Source of the DNA: an uncultured Candidatus Rokubacteria bacterium
Lineage (GTDB): Bacteria > Methylomirabilota > Methylomirabilia > Rokubacteriales > CSP1-6
Direction: 5' to 3'
Length of the DNA: 64,000 nucleotides
NCBI GenBank assembly: GCA_963789955.1
Contig: CAWBMV010000006.1
Span: 64,001-128,000, forward strand
Part shown: positions 2,667-10,540 of the stretch, piece by piece
Position numbering within the stretch: the stretch's first letter is position 1
Layout: each line of letters starts with the position of its first letter
Translations under genes and position numbers: made by a program
Notes under the pieces: generated by a model
Database searches by the model: none
The model's input: the letters and a program-made list of their open reading frames with translations, nothing else
What the model was told of the DNA's origin: nothing

Positions 2667-4051
2667 CTATCGATCCCGGAAGCCGTGGACGTGACTACCC
2701 ATGACGATCGTCCATTGCAGGAAGAACGCATCGTCGGTCGGCTTGGATGACGGCAAGCTCGTTTCGCTGTGGGTGTATTGGAGCCGAATGCGCTGGAACT
2801 CGGACGCCCAGATGGTGAAATACGGTGAGATCTGCCAGGTCGTGCGCGACGGATTGTCGATGTCCTGGACGTATTCCAGCAGGATCCCCGGGTAGTAGCG
2901 GCGGGTCAGGCGCGCCTCGAAATAGGTGTACGCGCCGACCGCATCGCGATATCTGAAGACCTGGGTAGGGCTGTCGTCGGTCGGGGGAATGCCCGGTCGG
3001 GCCTCGTGATTCACGAGGAGCTCGCTGCCCCAGATGAAGCCACGGTACGAGGACTGGCCCAGCGGTGCGTACCGCAACGTCATATCGAATCCGAACAGAT
3101 TTCGAGCCTTCAGCCCTTCGATTCGCACCTCCGGCGTGTAGGCGTCGCTCAGCCCGAGGTCGAGCCCTAGAGAATCGCTGAGGCTGAAGTACGTGGCCAC
3201 CCGACCCAGGTAGGTGAACTCCGAAAGATCGCGCGGTACGAGGTTGGAGACGCGATCGTTCTCGGCACCGATCTTGTTGTACATGCCGGCCGTGAACGTC
3301 AGGTACTGATCGATCGGCGCCAGCCAGCTCACCTCGACGCCGTCGGCCTGCGATTCTCCGCCGACGTACTGGTCGAGGACGAGGGGCCGGTTCACGAACG
3401 GCAGATCGTGGTCGTGGAACGTGGACAGGCGTCCGAACTCGGCGAAGAAGCGCCCGCCCTTGACCGTGAGGTTGTAGGGGAGCGCCGTCGTGACGATGGC
3501 GGCTTCCTCGACCTCGACCCCGTCCGCCGTCCCGTTGATGATGGCGTACGCCCTCGCAAACGGATCGACACTCGCCGAGATCCCCAGCTCACCCGACCGG
3601 AACTCGAAGTTCGAGTGGTTCTGCCGACTGTCGAGAACACCGAGTCGACGACGAATCCGATGGCTGGATTGAACTGAGATGGGAACGTCTTGTTCGCCGC
3701 GGCGAGTTGCGGCTGGATCTCGGCCAGGATCATTCGCTTGAGCTCCTCCGCGTCGACCGCCATGGGTGCCGGAGTCGGCGTCGCGGGCGGAGCCGCCGAG
3801 GGTATCGCCGGGGGAGGCGCTGCGGGCGCGGCTGACGGTGTGGGTGTGCCCGGTTTCTCGCCCGAGAGCTTTCGGATCAGCTCCTCCTGCTGTTTCATCT
3901 GTTGCTCGACGCGCTGCAACTGCTGCTTGACTGCGTCGAGCTCCCGGCGAAGCTGCTCTTCGCTCGCCGGCTGCTGGCTATGACCGGCGTAGGACCGCCG
4001 AGTATCACTGCCGTGCCCAGCAATACGACGACGGGAAGTAAGCACGCGCAT
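2667..4051 (-). CDS. Outer-membrane beta-barrel porin of the type linked to Zn/Mn ABC operons (frameshifted)
   Basis: Joined frames give a signal peptide, coiled coil, Pro/Ala linker, FNPAIG..EFRSGELGISASVDPFARAY..GRFFAEFGRLSTFHDHDLPFVNRP, amphipathic strands and C-terminal GSHVHGF. SD CGGAGGA at 4056-4062. Confidence 0.8.
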
Positions 4052-4127
4052 GCGATCCTCCGTATGGACATCGAGCTTGCCGGCAGCGGAGCCGGCGTGG
4101 TCGAGCTACGTCAGTGCGCGGAGGACG

Positions 4128-4409
4128 CTAGCGGAGCGGAGGAGCGCGAGAATCGAAGCGGTAGAGCGCCTGGCCCTGGATTCGGCCCGAGCGCTGGTGG
4201 GCCGCGAGCAGGGAGGCCAGGAACAGGACCACGACCGGTACGGTTTCGGCCAGCGACGCGGTCGAGCCGAGCGCCGCCATCAGGCTGAGGTCGTGCTCTG
4301 CGTTCCAGAGCCCCGACTCGGCCGAGACGTGGACGTGGAGAAGGGTCGCGCCGGCGACGACGAACGCGACGAGGCCCAGCACCAAGAGTAGCGACTTGAA
4401 CTTCGTCAC
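4128..4409 (-). CDS. Upstream leader / putative ribosome-arrest peptide with C-terminal RAPP (DUF2946/CruR-like, Cys-free)
   Basis: 93 aa: N-terminal hydrophobic segment, LHVHV, AEHD, and ends DSRAPPLR. Lies 76 nt upstream of the porin. Confidence 0.8.
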   Translation of the reverse strand: MTKFKSLLLVLGLVAFVVAGATLLHVHVSAESGLWNAEHDLSLMAALGSTASLAETVPVVVLFLASLLAAHQRSGRIQGQALYRFDSRAPPLR

Positions 4410-4416
4410 GGCGCTA

Positions 4417-4444
4417 ACAATACCTCACTTCTCGGTGTACGCAA
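4417..4444 (-). promoter_or_regulatory. Putative sigma70 promoter giving a leaderless transcript of the RAPP leader
   Basis: TTGCGT-N16-TATTGT, then 7 nt to GTG 4409. No SD in that 7-nt gap. Confidence 0.55.
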
Positions 4445-4476
4445 AGCCTGCGAAGGACTCACCCGAGGGGCGTGCC

Positions 4477-4845
4477 TCACCGCCGACCCGTCACCGTGAA
4501 GGTCAAGGTCGACTCGACGACGTGGCCGTCGACCGACAGCACGCGAAAGCTCACGGTATAGCGTCCGGGCGCGAGGAGAGGCAGCGAGACCGCGAGCCGC
4601 CGGGCATCCTCGGCCGACACCGCGACGTCACGCAGATCGACCTGGGCCCCCGCCTCGTTGGTCACCGACGCCTTCGAGTACGCCGGCTCGAGGCGCTCGT
4701 TGAACCAGAGCTCGACCCGGGGCGGCGGCTCGACGAGCGCGGCTCGCTGGGCGGGGACGGACTTCACGAGGACCGCGTGCGCGAGGGCCGCGGCAGGCCG
4801 GAGCAGCAGGGCGGCCAGCCCGGCGAGGACGAGACGCCGTCTCAT
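4477..4845 (-). CDS. copC: Periplasmic copper-binding protein CopC
   Basis: Signal peptide ending ALA-HAVL (N-terminal His), ELWFNERLE, YTVSFRVLSVDGH. Confidence 0.93.
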   Translation of the reverse strand: MRRRLVLAGLAALLLRPAAALAHAVLVKSVPAQRAALVEPPPRVELWFNERLEPAYSKASVTNEAGAQVDLRDVAVSAEDARRLAVSLPLLAPGRYTVSFRVLSVDGHVVESTLTFTVTGRR

Positions 4846-5210
4846 TTGATCTTCTCGATCGCGGTGACGGCCAGGTTCGGCAGAATGCCTCGCAAGGTGA
4901 ATCGTACCGCGTCGCCGACGGCCACGGCCTCCTGGATCTTCGGCGACGCGACGCGAAAGCCCATGGTCATCGCCGGCATGTAGCCCGGGATGTCGCCGTG
5001 CGTGAGCACGATCACCCCGAGCTCGGGAAAGATCGCGCGCACGACGCCGTCGACCGTCCACTGGCGCTCGACTCCGCTGGTGGCGGCGGTGCGCGCCTCG
5101 TCGAGCTCGCGCTCGAGCCGGGCCGCGCGAAGCCCCCAGAAGGCATAGCCCCAGCCCACACCGACGACGAGCGCCAGGTTGATCAGGAGCACCGCCTTCC
5201 AGGCCCGCAT
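4842..5210 (-). CDS. Membrane-anchored CusF-like copper-binding protein
   Basis: N-terminal TM. LTHGDIPGYMPAMTMGFRV carries the H..MxM CusF site, followed by VGDAVRF. Confidence 0.88.
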   Translation of the reverse strand: MRAWKAVLLINLALVVGVGWGYAFWGLRAARLERELDEARTAATSGVERQWTVDGVVRAIFPELGVIVLTHGDIPGYMPAMTMGFRVASPKIQEAVAVGDAVRFTLRGILPNLAVTAIEKIK

Positions 5211-7187
5211 CAGTGCACGTGCTCCTCCGGCGCCGCCTCCGCCGTGATCTTCTCGTCGTTGAGCTGCTGCACCTGGGCCATGAACGAATCGAGGTCGCCG
5301 GCCTCGCCGCCGCTTCGAGTGATGGCGCGGATGTAGCCCTGGCGATCGATGAGGAGCTCGACGTGCGGAGCGACCGCGAACATCCGATAGGCGGCCACGA
5401 TCGTCTCGGCGCCCTCGGTGACCACCGGGAACATGATGCGCGGGTCCGGACCGAGATGACGGATCGCGTCCGGGTCGGCGTCGATCGGCACCGCGATGAC
5501 CTCCACGCCGAGCATCGCCAGGCTTCCCTCGTGCTGGGCGATCTGAGTCATCCGCGCGCGCGAGCCGGGCAGCGCGTACAGCACGACCAGCACGTTGCGG
5601 CCCCGATAGTCCTTGAGCGTGCGCGCCGGCGTCGGGCCGACCGTGAACGTGAAGTCGGGTGCGACGAGCCAGCGCCGGTCGCGCTCGATCGTGGGTCCCA
5701 TGCCTCGGGCGCCGTACCCCGCCGACAGCGCGCGCAGGAAGTTGATCAGCTCCCAGCGTTGCTCCTCGCCGAGCCGCGAGTCGAATCCGGGCATCCCGGA
5801 TCCCGAGATCCCGTGACTGATCCACCAGAACAGGTCGCCCGCCGTGTGCTGCGCGGTGTGCGGCGCGCGCAGGTCGGCAGGGGACCGCGGAAGCCCTCGG
5901 CCGTCGGGGCCGTCGCCTGCGCCCCGCGGCCCGTGGCAGCCCGCGCAGTTCGTCTGGTAGAGCGCGGCGCCGGCCGTGATCGCGCCGGCCTGATAGGGTA
6001 CCGAAGGGCGCAGATACGTCGTCGGGTACGCGTCGATCGCCAGCGGCGGAAGCGCGAGCCCGGCGCCGGCCCCGAGCAAGGCGAGCGCGACCATCGCCAG
6101 GGGAAGCCGCCAGGCGCGCATCGCGATCCCGGCGATCAGGGCCAGCAGACCGATCACACCGATCTGGCTTCCGATCAACGCACGCGCCGTCTCGTCGGCG
6201 CGGCCCTCGAGCGCGGCGAACGACAGGCGGATCGTGAACGGCCAGAGTGGCGGCTCGTGACGGGCCGGCGGCGTGACGCTCATCGCGGCGACGATGGCGA
6301 CGATCGCCAGCGCCAGGATCGCCTCCACGAGCACAAATCCCGCGAGTCGGCGCATCGCCGGACGACCGACCGCCGGCCCGTCGCCGCCGAGACGGGCCAG
6401 AAGAACCGAGCGATTCACTGCGGCCAGCACGAGAATGAGCACCAGCAGCCCAAGCTTGGCGAGGAGCAGACGCCCGTAGGTCGTGCCGACGAGCCCGGCG
6501 ACGTTGCCGACGTGGGTGACCGCGAGCGTGGTGCCCGTGATCGCGAGCAGGAGGATCACGCCCAGCGCGGCGCGCGAGAAGCTCCGCGCCGCGAGCACCG
6601 CGTACGGCCGCGCATCCGCGCCGGCGTCCGTCGACGCCTTTTTCAGGAGAAGCGCCAGCGGGAGCAGCCCTCCCACCCAGATGCCGGCGCCGAGCACGTG
6701 CAGGGCGTCGACCGCGATCGCCCGCGCGGTGTCCGGCTCCACGGCGGCGGCGTGACCCGCCGCCGCGAGCGGCACCAGGGCCGCGACCCCGAGCAGCATC
6801 GCTTCGCCTCTCGCCGCCCGCCAGTCCGCGCGCCGCGCGACGGACACGCGCAAGGACAGGAAGGCGACGAGCATCGACGAGGAACCCGGCGCGCACGAGC
6901 CAGACGTGGCCGGCCTGGGTTTCGACCAGCACGCGTCCGATCGCGCGGGCTTCGAGCGCCGCGGCCGGCCGATCTTCGAAGAGGGCCGCCTGCGTACCGA
7001 CCACGACGAGGCCGGACGCGAGCGCGACGAGCGCGCAGCCCCACGCCCAGGCGAGCACGCGCCGCTCCCAGGCCAGTGCGGTCGCGCGATCAGAGCGGCC
7101 TGCCATCACGATCATCGCCGCGGCGCCGACGAGGAGGACCGAGCTGGCGAGATGGAACCAGCGAGCGGTGAGACCGAGCGCGTACAC
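5210..7187 (-). CDS. copD: CopD + cytochrome c + thioredoxin-fold fusion (frameshift near 6875)
   Basis: ARWFHL, AGHAAA, LHVLGAGIWVGGL, TTYGRLLLAKL (CopD). CAGCH heme motif with GMPGF. APDFTF..LKDYRGR redoxin-like domain. Ends EEHVH. Confidence 0.88.
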
Positions 7188-7803: not shown

Positions 7804-8791
7804 ATGCAAGGGAAGACTCTATTCGCGTGCGCGCTCGCGCTGGCGCTCTCGTTCGCGACGTTCGACGCGGCTCAGGCCCACGGCCTGATCGGCAAGCGGT
7901 TTTTCCCGGCGACCTTGGCCACCGACGATCCGTTCGTGGCCGACGAGCTCTCGTTGCCGACCATCTCCTATCTCAAGCTCCGGGGCAGTGAAGACGCGCC
8001 CCCGACGAAACAGATCGACCTGAGCGGCGAGTTCTCGAAGCGTCTGAGTCCCGAATCTGGGCATCTCGCTCGCTGGGACCTTCACGATGCTGGACCCGGA
8101 CGAAGGCTCGTCCGTGAGCGGCTTCGACAACCTCGAGGTCTCGGCGAAGTACGTCTTCTTCAAGAACGCCCCGCACGAGCTCCTGCTGGCGGGCGGTCTC
8201 AGCTGGGACGTGGGCGGCACCGGCAGCAAGAAGGTCGACGCCGAGAGCTTCGACACGTGGACGCCGCAGCTCTTCTTCGGCAAGGGCTTCGGCGATCTGC
8301 CGGATCAGCTCGAGCTGATGAAGCCCTTCGCGGTGACCGGCGTGTTCGGCCTGGCGATTCCCTCGCGCGTGCACACGAAGACGTTCGAGACCGACGAAGA
8401 CGGCACCGTGGACGTGAAGAAGCCGCTGAATCCGATGGTGTTCCAGTGGGGGTTCAGCTTCCAGTACAACCTGCAATACCTGCAATCCTACGTGCGCGAC
8501 GTCGGGCTCCCGGCGCCGCTCAACCGGATGATTCCGATCGTCGAGCTCGTGCTCGAGACGCCGCTCGACGGGCGGGACGCCGGGCGCACGACCGGCACCG
8601 TGAACCCGGGGATCATCTGGTTCGGGCGGTATTTCCAGCTCGGGCTCGAGGCGGTCATTCCGGTCAACCACGACATCAGCAAGAACATCGGCGCCCTCGC
8701 GCAGATTCACTTCTATCTGGACGACATCCTGCCGCAGGTCTTCACGTGGACGCCGTTCCACGGCGTCCTCGGGCCGACGCAGCCGCAGTGA
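7804..8791 (+). CDS. Putative outer-membrane beta-barrel protein associated with copCD (frameshift near 8050)
   Basis: Signal peptide AQA-HGLIGKRFFPATLATDDPFVADELSLP. Alternating aromatic strands GFDNLEVSAKY, QLGLEAVIPVN, QIHFYLDD. Confidence 0.72.
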
Positions 8792-9139
8792 GCCGACTGC
8801 TGGCGGTGGCGCTGCTTCTGCTCGCTCCGAGCTGGGCCGGGGCTCACGCGTTTCCCGACCATTCCGAGCCCCGGGTCGGGCACACGGTGGAGGCGTCGCC
8901 GCCGGCAGTCCGCATCTGGTTCGACGGGCAGATCGAGCCCGTGTTCAGCAAGCTTCGCGTCGAGGACGCCAACAACCGACAGGTCGACAAGGGCGACTCG
9001 CGGGTGAATCCGACGGACGCGAACAATTCTCGAGGTCGGTCTGCCGCCGCTGGCGCCGGGCCGATATCGCGTGTTCTGGAGCGTCGTCGCCCGTGACGGC
9101 CACCGGACCGAGGGCGATTTTGCTTTTCGGGTGAAATAG
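8788..9139 (+). CDS. copC: Copper-binding protein CopC (frameshift near 9025)
   Basis: AGA-HAFPDHSEP, RIWFDGQIEPVFS, then LEVGLPPLAPGRYRVFWSVVARDGHRTEGDFAF. Confidence 0.9.
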
Positions 9140-9155
9140 ACGGGACGCCCCAGAC

Positions 9156-10540
9156 GTGATCGCCCTGCCTCTGCACGAGCTGCTCCTGGCGACCGGCGGC
9201 CGCTGGCTCGGACTGCTCGCGCTGGCGGTGCTGGTCGGCGGCCTCGTGCTCGACTGCGTCGTGCTCCCGCGCCACGCCGGAGAGCTCGTGACGGCCCGGC
9301 GCCGGCTCCAGCGGTGGATCAGCCTGGCGATCGTGCTACTGCTCGTGACGTCCGTGATCGATCTTCTGGCCCGAGCGCGCGTGATGAGCGGGGGCGACCT
9401 CTCGCAGGTGGGCACGGTGCTGCCGCTCGTGCTGACGCGCACGCACTTCGGCACGGTGTGGATCGCGCGCGCGATCATTCTCGTGGCTCTCCTCGCACTC
9501 TCCGCGTTGCGTCGTCGCCGGCAGCCGGATCGTCGGGTTCGTGCTCGCCCTCGGCGTCGCGCTGACCGGTACGCTCACCGGGCACGCCGCCGACTGGGGC
9601 GATCGCTCGTTCTCCGTGCTGGTCGACTGGCTTCACGCGGTCGCCGCCACCGCGTGGACGGGAGGGCTGTTCGGTCTGGCGATCGCGCTCAGCCCGCGGA
9701 GCGCGTTCAGGATCGGCGCCTCATCCGAGCTGCTCCGTACGGTCGCGCGGCGATTCTCGCGTCTCGCCGGGTACTGCCTGCTGGTCGTCGTCGCCAGCGG
9801 TGTCTACAACGCGTACGTTCAAGTGCCGACCTTCGCTTCGCTGTGGACCACGACGTATGGAGCGGCTCTCCTGCTCAAGGTCGTGCTCGCGCTGGTCCTC
9901 GCGCTGCTGGGCGCTGTGAATCGCTACCTGGTGCTGCCGGGTCTCGGGGCGACCCGCCCGCGACGGCGCGGACGGCTCCGCCGGCTCTGTCGCATCGCGC
10001 TCTTCGGCGCCGCGACGGCTCAGGGAGCAGCGCGAACCCGGCTCTCGCGGCTGGTCGGGCGCGAAGCGGCGGTCGCGGTTGTCGTGTTCGGCTGTACGGC
10101 CGTCCTCGGCGAGTCCACCCCCAAAACCCACGAGGCCCACGCCTCCCACGTCGGCGATCGAGAGGAGGACGGCGCGCATCACGATGCAGGAGCTGCATGC
10201 GAGCGGCGGCGTGCCGAAGGGCTGGATGTTCACGCCGCCCTCGGGCGACGCCGCCAGGGGCCGTGAGGTGTTCGCGCGGCTCGAGTGCTACACGTGTCAC
10301 GCGGTGGCCGGCGAGACGTTCCCGCGGCCCTCGAAGGTCGGGCCCGCGCTGAGCGACGTCGGCCACCATCATCCGCCCGGCTATCTCCTCGAGTCGGTCA
10401 TCAATCCGAACGCCGTGATCGTCGAGGCGCCGGGCTATACTGGCCCCGACGGACGCTCGATCATGCCCGACTATCGCGACAGCCTCTCGACCCGCGAGCT
10501 GATCGACCTGATCGCCTACCTGAAGAGCCTCGGAGGCTAG
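9156..10540 (+). CDS. copD: CopD with C-terminal cytochrome c, probably one fused gene (frameshifts near 9510 and 10170)
   Basis: THFGTVWIAR, TGHAADWG, WLHAVAATAWTGGL, TTTYGAALLLK. His linker THEAHASH. CYTCH heme motif and SIMPDY. Confidence 0.82.

Follow-up and report, generated by a model that had tools for sequence, protein, structure and literature searches.

The stretch of DNA analysed here, called the window below, comprises 64,000 nucleotides (nt) from an uncultured Candidatus Rokubacteria bacterium (contig CAWBMV010000006.1, positions 64,001 to 128,000), and its minus strand carries, directly ahead of a gene for an outer-membrane porin-like protein, a small open reading frame (ORF) that ends with Arg-Ala-Pro-Pro (RAPP) and a two-codon tail (Table 1). 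The porin-like gene is followed by genes for the substrate-binding protein, the ATPase and the permease of a ZnuABC-type metal importer. On balance, we favor the view that this ORF encodes an arrest leader resembling CruR of Bordetella pertussis and CutF of Rhodobacter capsulatus, which is probably metal-sensing; completion of the leader would open the ribosome-binding site of the porin gene, and its arrest would keep that site shut.

Table 1. Positions of the leader, of the elements within and around it, and of the neighboring genes in the window
Feature	Position	Strand	Remarks
Candidate promoter TTGCGT-16 nt-TATTGT	4417-4444	minus	ends 7 nt before GTG start; alignment read by eye
Leader ORF, 93 amino acids	4128-4409	minus	GTG start; TAG stop at 4128-4130; no Cys
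N-terminal hydrophobic segment, residues 6-24	4338-4394	minus	hydropathy peak about 2.6; helix 2-28 in AlphaFold2 (AF2) model
HVH, residues 25-27	4329-4337	minus	directly after hydrophobic stretch; H25 and H27 invariant in three alignments
N-A-E-H-D, residues 36-40	4290-4304	minus	H39 is the third conserved His; N36 and H39 nearly invariant
Second hydrophobic segment, residues about 56-72	4194-4244	minus	within fixed-length spacer; Kyte-Doolittle about 2.3
D-S-R-A-P-P, residues 86-91	4137-4154	minus	RAPP (88-91) at 4137-4148, then Leu-Arg and stop
Anti-Shine-Dalgarno (anti-SD) CGUCCUCCG	4119-4127	minus	begins 1 nt past leader stop; UCCUCC core
Leader-porin intergenic region, 76 nt	4052-4127	minus	C-rich, C 39% vs G 29%
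Porin Shine-Dalgarno (SD) GGAGGA	4056-4061	minus	porin ATG at 4049-4051; SD invariant in intergenic alignment
Outer-membrane porin-like gene	2667-4051	minus	two frames, 3392-4051 and 2667-3620
Cluster A-I substrate-binding protein, ZnuA family	1637-2548	minus	PF01297, E 1e-53
ABC transporter ATPase	961-1659	minus	PF00005; best NCBIfam AztA, 193 bits vs cut-off 220
ABC-3 permease	83-1354 (likely true start about 964)	minus	PF00950, E 4e-35, residues 144-408; best NCBIfam AztB, below cut-off
CopC	4477-4845	minus	upstream of leader
CusF-like gene, 122 amino acids	4845-5210	minus	hidden inside a spurious 987-residue ORF; relatives match PF11604 CusF_Ec
CopD-cytochrome c-thioredoxin-like fusion	5210-6874	minus	upstream of leader

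The leader peptide has a Lys/Arg-rich start followed by about 19 hydrophobic residues, as read from the sequence and its hydropathy, and residues 6-24 are predicted to be an export signal or a signal anchor. An earlier inspection of the letters alone (the sequence-only reading) had described a Cys-free ORF of 93 residues in which HVH follows the hydrophobic stretch and EHD comes 11 positions later, and all of this was confirmed: EHD occupies residues 38-40, 11 positions past H27. Also, the distance to RAPP, given there as about 45 residues, is 47 residues between D40 and R88. The leader is intact in the window, unlike the frame-broken porin gene behind it. Its AF2 model (predicted local distance difference test score, pLDDT, of 68) comprises three helices and is uninformative on a metal site.

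For the core comparison we used 16 loci, namely the window and 15 relatives of the same genus or family. The ortholog alignment proposed in the sequence-only reading, for HxH, EH and their spacing, bore that proposal out: 60 residues from HxH to R[AG]PP and 47 from [ED]HD to R[AG]PP are found in 16/16 loci, and H25 and H27 are invariant in 31 diverse members of the family. The length of 93 residues is kept in 13 of the 16 loci and the two-codon tail after R[AG]PP in 15, and in 12 of the 16 ATG replaces GTG at the position of the window's start. RAPP is present in 12/16 loci and RGPP in the other four (L017, L019, L020 and L023); among 26 distant members, 24 have RAPP, one RGPP and one RAPL. 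Besides the two His, R88, P90 and P91 are invariant in the 31 diverse members and N36, H39, L41 and A89 nearly so, and the family motif can be written as HxH plus N-x-[ED]-H-[DV]-L, in place of the CXXC of CruR. While the alignment of the diverse members is almost free of gaps from HxH to RAPP, the sequence of the spacer is poorly conserved, and it is indeed the least conserved part of the leader (mean proportion of nonsynonymous differences, pN, of 0.32). Many distant members lack hydrophobicity at the place of the second hydrophobic segment; it is therefore the length, not the nature, of the spacer that is conserved.

In the sister family f4 (Y-[ND]-E-E-C-P-L), which has the same operon context, Cys takes the place of the third conserved His, as it also does in the homolog P0155; since such a swap fits a metal ligand, position 39 is a candidate for one. 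In this regard, the description of the leader as Cys-free and His-only holds for the peptide of the window but not as a rule of the family. The Cys-free state is true of the window's clade and of most distant members, but relatives of the same genus carry 1-3 Cys residues (GTHACQ and an extra H-A-C).

Judged by its substitution pattern, the leader ORF is a real gene under purifying selection. In the closest pairs, the ratio of nonsynonymous to synonymous substitution rates (dN/dS) lies between 0.12 and 0.34, and its median over 77 pairs from the 13 loci of identical length is 0.44; also, the R[AG]PP codons vary synonymously, with all synonymous forms used. A spurious ORF in GC-rich DNA is ruled out by this conservation and dN/dS. 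Furthermore, the swap between RAPP and RGPP together with the constant two-codon tail points to selection on the arrest motif itself. These features support the view that the ORF is conserved and translated as a leader of the RAPP/RGPP arrest type, and a regulatory leader peptide, not an ordinary protein, would be the best explanation of the product of this ORF.

In terms of distribution, a word-indexed protein search returned 19 proteins, the first being the window's own and the other 18 coming from metagenomes; DSRAPP or a close variant is retained in 18 of these 19 aligned sequences and lost in P0011. When the single protein was used as the query, 16/41 related genomes were matched (15/24 in its own genome family and 0/16 in others), and a profile made from diverse members gave matches in 117/251 genomes of the phylum, a tally that takes in the unpublished genomes G115, G232 and G233 and is 114/248 without them. 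By genome family, the profile matched 105/158 genomes in f1, 10/21 in f4 (often with two to four copies per genome), 1/21 in f7 and 0/50 in ten others. Among 1.84 billion cluster representatives, the profile search gave 218 matches at E <= 0.001, including 98 at E <= 1e-10; most of the matches listed have 88-128 residues with near-full coverage of the profile, and a minority are fragments, longer ORFs or read-through fusions. The nearest clusters in a protein atlas belong to Candidatus Methylomirabilota/Rokuibacteriota, none of them with a common Pfam family, and none of the Pfam and NCBIfam models matches the leader family. A match to CbtB in 2 of the 19 members (E 0.11) was weak and is treated as noise. 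We also noticed that two loci (L062:5822-6891, plus strand; L063:7492-8957, minus strand) have two tandem leaders, both ending with SRAPP, between a CusF-like gene and the porin-ZnuA genes.

Directly ahead of the leader, a block composed of CTTGCAAT, 17 nt and TGTTGT is followed by 7 nt and then ATG in 11 of the 16 loci, when the alignment of loci L011-L023 is read by eye, and no SD precedes the start of the leader. This conserved block looks like the promoter of a candidate leaderless or near-leaderless mRNA. No promoter or terminator was flagged by a consensus scan of 3950-4560, which includes the intergenic spacer, where no intrinsic terminator was found. No Zur-like or other operator palindrome is conserved between the candidate -35 and -10 elements, where the sequence varies, with no formal Zur-box search made.

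The RNA between the leader and the porin gene, measured from the leader stop to the porin ATG, is 59-102 nt long across the 16 loci, with mean contents of 38% for C and 27% for G and a C:G ratio of about 2:1 in the first 45 nt. Within this otherwise variable spacer, UCCUCC placed 0-4 nt past the leader stop pairs with the porin GGAGGA in 16/16 loci, and this anti-SD:SD helix is the sole consensus helix returned by RNAalifold; further pairs join the AUG-CGC region of the porin to the final codons of the leader and, in many loci, to its Arg-Ala codons as well. Distant members show similar anti-SD stretches directly past the leader stop. Because both arms are fixed by the SD sequence, the helix has no compensatory variation, and the evidence for it is therefore conservation, not covariation.

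As to the position of this helix relative to the ribosome, the leader stop falls at +12 to +14 when numbering begins with the first base of the Pro90 codon, and the core of the anti-SD then occupies +15 to +23 (+19 to +23 in 10/16 loci). The footprint of a bacterial ribosome on its mRNA extends to about +15/16, and unwinding reaches about +11 to +13. From these edges and the anti-SD position, a ribosome arrested at RAPP would abut the helix without opening it, while a ribosome at the stop codon would cover it; by the same edge, the 5' arm of the helix would not lie inside the footprint of the stalled ribosome, unlike in a switch of the SecM/MifM type. We then estimated SD accessibility in the 16 loci by folding the RNA left free in each ribosome state (truncated RNA), which supersedes an earlier constrained folding with 60 nt of RNA from upstream, whose values were unclear. 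The modelled median probability that the SD is unpaired is 0.001 for the free mRNA, 0.04 with the ribosome arrested at RAPP and 0.32 with the ribosome at the stop codon. The sequence-only reading had proposed that metal releases the stall; the RNA geometry suggests a different logic, in which the stalled ribosome would leave the porin ribosome-binding site masked.

With regard to the genes linked to the leader, the CopD fusion lies upstream in 15/15 relatives, while the porin and ZnuA genes follow the leader in 13/15 (the contigs of the other two end first) and the ABC-3 gene in 11/15. Because the Cop genes in close relatives alone could mean a link to copper, we compared 18 further loci, which were hand-picked for divergence or multiple copies and in which 26 leader ORFs were called by the family hidden Markov model; in the Pfam scan of these loci, 103 of 432 ORFs were left by a filter on GC content at third codon positions, which may have lost real genes. 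ZnuA and/or ABC-3 genes are found downstream on the same strand in 16/18 of them, usually after a protein of 430-505 residues with no Pfam family, while CopD/CusF genes are upstream in just 3/18; elsewhere, the upstream genes are unrelated ones that encode acyl-CoA dehydrogenase, MsrB or histidine kinase. Gene order thus supports a tie of the leader family to ZnuA/ABC-3 importers rather than to copper genes.

The metal carried by the importer of the window may be examined through its binding protein, for which the best solved relatives are the zinc binders AdcAII (7lm7 and 3cx3; E about 1e-24), Synechocystis ZnuA and Lbp/Lmb. Its His (EDIH), His (NPH), His (AYH) and Glu (IRELH) align with IHS, PHT, QHT and TES of AdcAII, which we take to be zinc ligands. 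In cluster A-I, a third His instead of Glu marks the binders of Zn over those of Mn, the latter having His-His-Glu-Asp, and by the alignment to AdcAII the protein of the window does have the three His presumed for a zinc-specific member. NCBIfam also ranks the zinc models AztC, AztA and AztB first for the three subunits, all of them below their cut-offs; in particular, the binding protein does not reach the cut-off of a zinc-binding-protein equivalog, with 110 bits vs 350 for AztC as the best and 77 bits for MntC as the next. As regards what lies downstream, the sequence-only reading had listed a porin ending with HVHGF and a cluster A-I importer: the porin-like gene and the PF01297 and ABC genes are there, but the porin ends with SHVHGFRDR and its frame is split. 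The porin and ZnuA of the window are about 30% and about 45% identical, respectively, to the versions of same-genus relatives. The ATPase gene sits between the binding-protein and permease genes in the window and had no match by tblastn at 1e-5 in the fetched stretches of the 15 relatives (L009-L023). Given the low identity and the extra ATPase gene, the porin-importer module of the window is a divergent version.

Other copies of the leader have neighbors of different kinds. A Fur-family gene, not called Zur by NCBIfam, is directly ahead of the leader in two loci, and in another (L059:7567-8416, minus strand) a NikR gene above the NCBIfam cut-off is directly ahead of a leader and an ABC-3 permease gene, which hints that some copies serve nickel. 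One binding protein beside another copy scores equally as MntC and AztC. Also, a subfamily with VHxH...Y-D-E-[ED]-C-P-L...S-P-R-G-P-P (L054:7134-7418, minus strand; L056:9533-9814, plus strand; L058:8451-8735, plus strand) has two or three SPFH/Band_7 genes and the gene for a P1B ATPase downstream of it; this ATPase passes the Zn/Cd-type model TIGR01512 (461 bits vs the cut-off of 313) and fails the Cu-type model. Going by these assignments, the S-P-R-G-P-P subfamily is an efflux-type context for the same peptide design.

Two known systems are close in design to this leader. CruR (Bp2923) is the prototype of DUF2946/PF11162 (Roy et al. 2022, PMC9426467); copper read via its CXXC relieves the arrest, and Rho then terminates transcription before the uptake gene. 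In the 45-residue spacer between CXXC and RAPP of CruR, the addition of five residues strongly cut the control by copper, which changes of one or two residues did not (PMC9426467). The present leader resembles CruR as a small, putatively exported upstream ORF heading a metal-uptake operon, with an outer-membrane uptake gene next and a C-rich RNA behind, and in its putative metal motif at a fixed distance of about 45 residues from RAPP, which itself is 2-3 residues before the stop. It differs in having three His (HxH, then N-x-[ED]-H) instead of CXXC, with E-H-D-L at the ruler position of CXXC, a porin and a ZnuA/ABC-3 importer instead of a TonB-dependent transporter, and a spacer of 59-102 nt with the conserved anti-SD:SD helix instead of a Rho site of 162 nt; also, the metal here is probably not copper. 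In CutF, another DUF2946 protein, copper brings about arrest while the protein is being secreted, and a stem that covers the next ribosome-binding site is melted by the stalled ribosome (PMC9973294; bioRxiv 10.1101/2025.02.05.636593). Common to CutF and the present leader are a nascent exported peptide as the metal sensor (both export and sensing being putative here) and an mRNA stem masking the ribosome-binding site of the next gene. In CutF, however, the motif is based on Cys and the melted stem turns on a detoxifying oxidase, whereas here the motif is based on His, the anti-SD is past the stalled ribosome and importers would be regulated. SecM, MifM and VemP likewise combine an export signal, which is a predicted one in the present leader, with a helix masking the downstream ribosome-binding site, but those peptides sense the activity of the secretion machinery and their stalled ribosome disrupts the helix, while the present leader has residues resembling metal ligands and its helix starts past the stalled ribosome.

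Despite these resemblances, the leader does not belong to DUF2946. The PF11162 profile (cut-off 23.7 bits) gave no match among 19 members of the leader family (E up to 10) or 47 distant members (E up to 0.1); in the genome of the window it hit two unrelated places, both below the cut-off, and nothing at the leader locus. When the family profile was compared by hhalign with two DUF2946-like ORFs, the probabilities were 0.1% and 2.4%. PF11162 is above its cut-off in 1/251 genomes of the phylum, compared with 117/251 for the present leader family. Of the features of DUF2946, the C-terminal RAPP and the spacing of about 45 residues are present, while CXXC (or CxxxC) is not, there being no Cys in the window's leader and a single Cys at position 39 in some relatives. 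Membership in DUF2946 is accordingly ruled out by the failed profile tests.

The leader does have the features of the RAPP/RGPP arrest peptides (Sakiyama 2021; Fujiwara 2024, 2025) as described in Fujiwara et al. 2025 (PMC12992588), namely a secretory or membrane protein of less than 300 residues that has R[AG]PP near its C-terminus and whose gene directly precedes the regulated one on the same strand. In that paper RAPP and RGPP were singled out as robust, EF-P-resistant motifs, Pro3 and Pro4 of the RAPP of CruR were assigned to the P site and the A site, respectively, and RAPP/RGPP upstream ORFs were found ahead of many metal-homeostasis genes (TonB-dependent receptors, YcnI, PCuAC and PepSY). 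It also described an arresting peptide of Streptomyces lividans, SLIV_18480, whose three conserved His, together with one Met, were interpreted as a copper site. By its description, SLIV_18480 is similar to the present leader as a RAPP/RGPP peptide before a metal-related gene, with experimentally found arrest and a predicted three-His plus Met site, but it has four predicted transmembrane segments and a copper-related gene behind, as compared with one or two hydrophobic segments, the ruled HxH...H triad and ZnuA-type importers here. The supplementary table of that paper shows an enrichment of "carbohydrate porin" behind RAPP ORFs (54 vs 5) and one RAPP ORF ahead of a "zinc-regulated TonB-dependent receptor"; no row with "zinc ABC" or "metal ABC transporter" occurs in the part of supplementary file 8 examined, file 10 not being searched. 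A Caulobacter Zur-regulon paper merely lists DUF2946 genes among zinc-responsive ones. The sequence-only reading had regarded arrest-peptide sensing beyond copper as undescribed: full-text literature searches found no paper on a zinc-sensing or zinc-linked arrest peptide, in keeping with that view, but RAPP/RGPP ORFs before metal-homeostasis genes had already been reported (PMC12992588).

Comparison of the loci supplied the gene, its motifs, its spacings, the helix and the linkage, and from them we infer the arrest, the metal binding, the identity of the metal and the sign of the response, as follows. The leader mRNA would probably begin at or just ahead of the start codon, the N-terminal hydrophobic segment would direct the nascent chain to the membrane, and the ribosome would arrest at Arg-Ala-Pro-Pro, its P site occupied by Pro90 and its A site by Pro91. 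The nascent chain would by then have emerged from the exit tunnel up to about residue 55; given that H39 is about 50 and H25/H27 about 64 residues from the peptidyl-transferase center at arrest, all three His would be exposed, and together with E38 and D40 they could form a putative metal site. Occupancy of this site would alter the force on the nascent chain and hence the duration of the arrest. The regulated output would be translation of the porin gene and of the ZnuABC-type importer behind it: UCCUCC past the leader stop would keep the porin GGAGGA in the helix, the RAPP-arrested ribosome would stop short of the helix, and a ribosome reaching the stop codon would cover it. Because of the position of the anti-SD relative to the ribosome, arrest would thus hold the porin ribosome-binding site shut and completion of the leader would open it; with an importer behind the leader, the metal must then prolong the arrest, which is the sign reported for CutF. 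Zinc, which is favored because of the transporter behind the leader, seems the most likely metal to be sensed, but its chance is well below even in absolute terms, since Cu(II) and Ni(II) are likewise bound by His sites, and other copies have different regulators and binding proteins next to them.

Among the alternatives, the main one, and a serious rival although we consider it less likely, is a wiring of the CruR type, in which arrest means ON, with the stalled ribosome blocking Rho on the C-rich RNA and melting the lower part of the helix, and in which the metal releases the arrest and the ribosome leaves, the importer then being turned OFF by closure of the helix or by Rho termination. Such a mechanism has been shown for CruR ahead of an uptake gene (PMC9426467), and the C-rich, G-poor composition of the spacer, the failure of the scan to find an intrinsic terminator and the location of the outer helix pairs, namely those linking the final codons of the leader with the AUG region of the porin, inside the stalled ribosome would all suit it. 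The anti-SD core, nonetheless, lies past the stalled ribosome, where the SD is modelled as paired, and the spacer is shorter than the 162 nt of CruR. When these two wirings alone are set side by side, we lean modestly to the one in which arrest keeps the porin site shut.

It is also conceivable, but in our estimation very unlikely, that the ORF encodes an ordinary small membrane protein with two helices, an accessory or metal-handling subunit of the importer, in which RAPP has no regulatory role and the helix provides plain translational coupling. Two hydrophobic helices with a His-bearing loop would suit metal binding, and coupling by an SD-masking helix requires no arrest; the selection on the arrest motif seen in the RAPP-to-RGPP swap and the constant tail speaks against this possibility, however, and the rigid spacing of 47 and 60 residues over a poorly conserved spacer is hard to explain by a fold. 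Bacterial proteomes, furthermore, show a strong avoidance of RAPP-like motifs, and the C-termini of small exported upstream ORFs are enriched in them (PMC12992588). Least probable of all is a monitor of secretion or insertion like SecM, MifM and ApdA that matches the synthesis of porin and binding protein to the Sec/YidC capacity and uses its His structurally, because, although RAPP-type arrest peptides were first found as Sec/YidC monitors and the leader has a predicted export signal plus, in the window's clade, the second hydrophobic segment, that segment is not conserved family-wide, the genes downstream are for a metal importer and not for Sec/YidC components, the invariant residues are His, one of them with the His-to-Cys swap, and Fur-family and NikR genes adjoin some copies.

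Several points weigh against the arrest leader that we propose. Because PF11162 and hhalign gave no match, the analogy to CruR and CutF is one of architecture, not of homology. The anti-SD:SD helix is without compensatory changes, and shuffled alignments reached the observed covariation score in 74/500 trials. The ribosome edges that underlie the geometry are general background values, not computed ones, and even with the modelled terminating ribosome the opening of the SD exceeds 0.5 in just 5/16 loci. As for the metal, the cluster of the window adjoins CopC, CopD and CusF-like genes in its own genome family, and His sites also bind Cu(II); in addition, the metal may differ between leader copies, given NikR, the non-Zur Fur-family regulators and the tie between MntC and AztC near other copies. 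Finally, the porin gene behind the leader copy of the window is frame-broken in the assembly.

This porin gene has a frame break near 3620-3631, and its signal-peptide region (about 3979-4053) reads right only in a third frame. In related-strain contigs, which account for small shares of the sampled words and come from two sequencing runs, a single additional base occurs at 3629 or 3631; one such contig has 91 other letters in place of 3979-4053. Since other genes of the window also look frame-broken, these breaks may be assembly errors rather than decay. Pfam and NCBIfam gave no match for the porin-like gene. For an intact porin-like protein of about 450 residues from a relative, 16 strands are predicted (pLDDT 61.5) in addition to a signal peptide, a coiled coil and a Pro-rich linker, and this modelled 16-strand barrel matches porins (chitoporin, OmpT, OprP, Omp32 and OprB) in Foldseek with E values from 3e-10 to 1e-7 and TM scores of 0.43-0.6. 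We also noticed at the C-terminus of the porin a conserved His pair before the terminal Phe, which appears as G-A-H-P-A-H-P-F in 10 relatives (L009-L021) and as G-S-H-V-H-G-F-R-D-R in the window (2667-2700); this pair may be a metal-related feature of the channel.

On the other side of the leader, the start of the CusF-like gene overlaps the stop of the CopD fusion by one base, and the stop of the CusF-like gene overlaps the start of CopC. Farther away, at 7804-10540 on the plus strand, there is a second, divergent copper-type cluster with more apparent frame breaks: it contains an outer-membrane-like ORF in two frames (7804-8100 and 8087-8791), CopD (9541-10263) and cytochrome c (10079-10537), and 8790-9093 on the plus strand reads like CopC by eye, without a Pfam match.

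In conclusion, the leader probably resembles CruR and CutF in its mode of action, while its family stands outside PF11162. A bolder proposal, which we put forward tentatively and would not call probable, is that it represents a widespread, unannotated family, independent of DUF2946, whose nascent chains sense zinc or some other divalent metal, with tunable ligands (His-x-His plus His or Cys), an RNA logic reverse to that of SecM and CutF, and paralogues gating both ZnuABC-type importers and Zn/Cd P1B ATPases. The uptake of metals by bacteria is usually explained by transcriptional repressors (Zur, Fur and NikR), and, of the transition metals, copper alone has so far been shown to be sensed by arrest peptides as nascent chains, namely by CruR and CutF. 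If our reading is true, a His-based leader at zinc-type importers would take arrest-peptide metal sensing to another metal and would add to zinc homeostasis a fast post-transcriptional layer, which perhaps reads the periplasm. If paralogues do gate importers and P1B ATPases, one peptide design would serve both uptake and efflux by changing the RNA behind it. The rigid 47/60-residue ruler, the His/Cys and RAPP/RGPP swaps and the simple anti-SD helix together make a compact system that can be mutated and is portable to reporters, and the leader family, which is missed by annotation pipelines, is present in about half of the sampled genomes of a poorly studied soil phylum.

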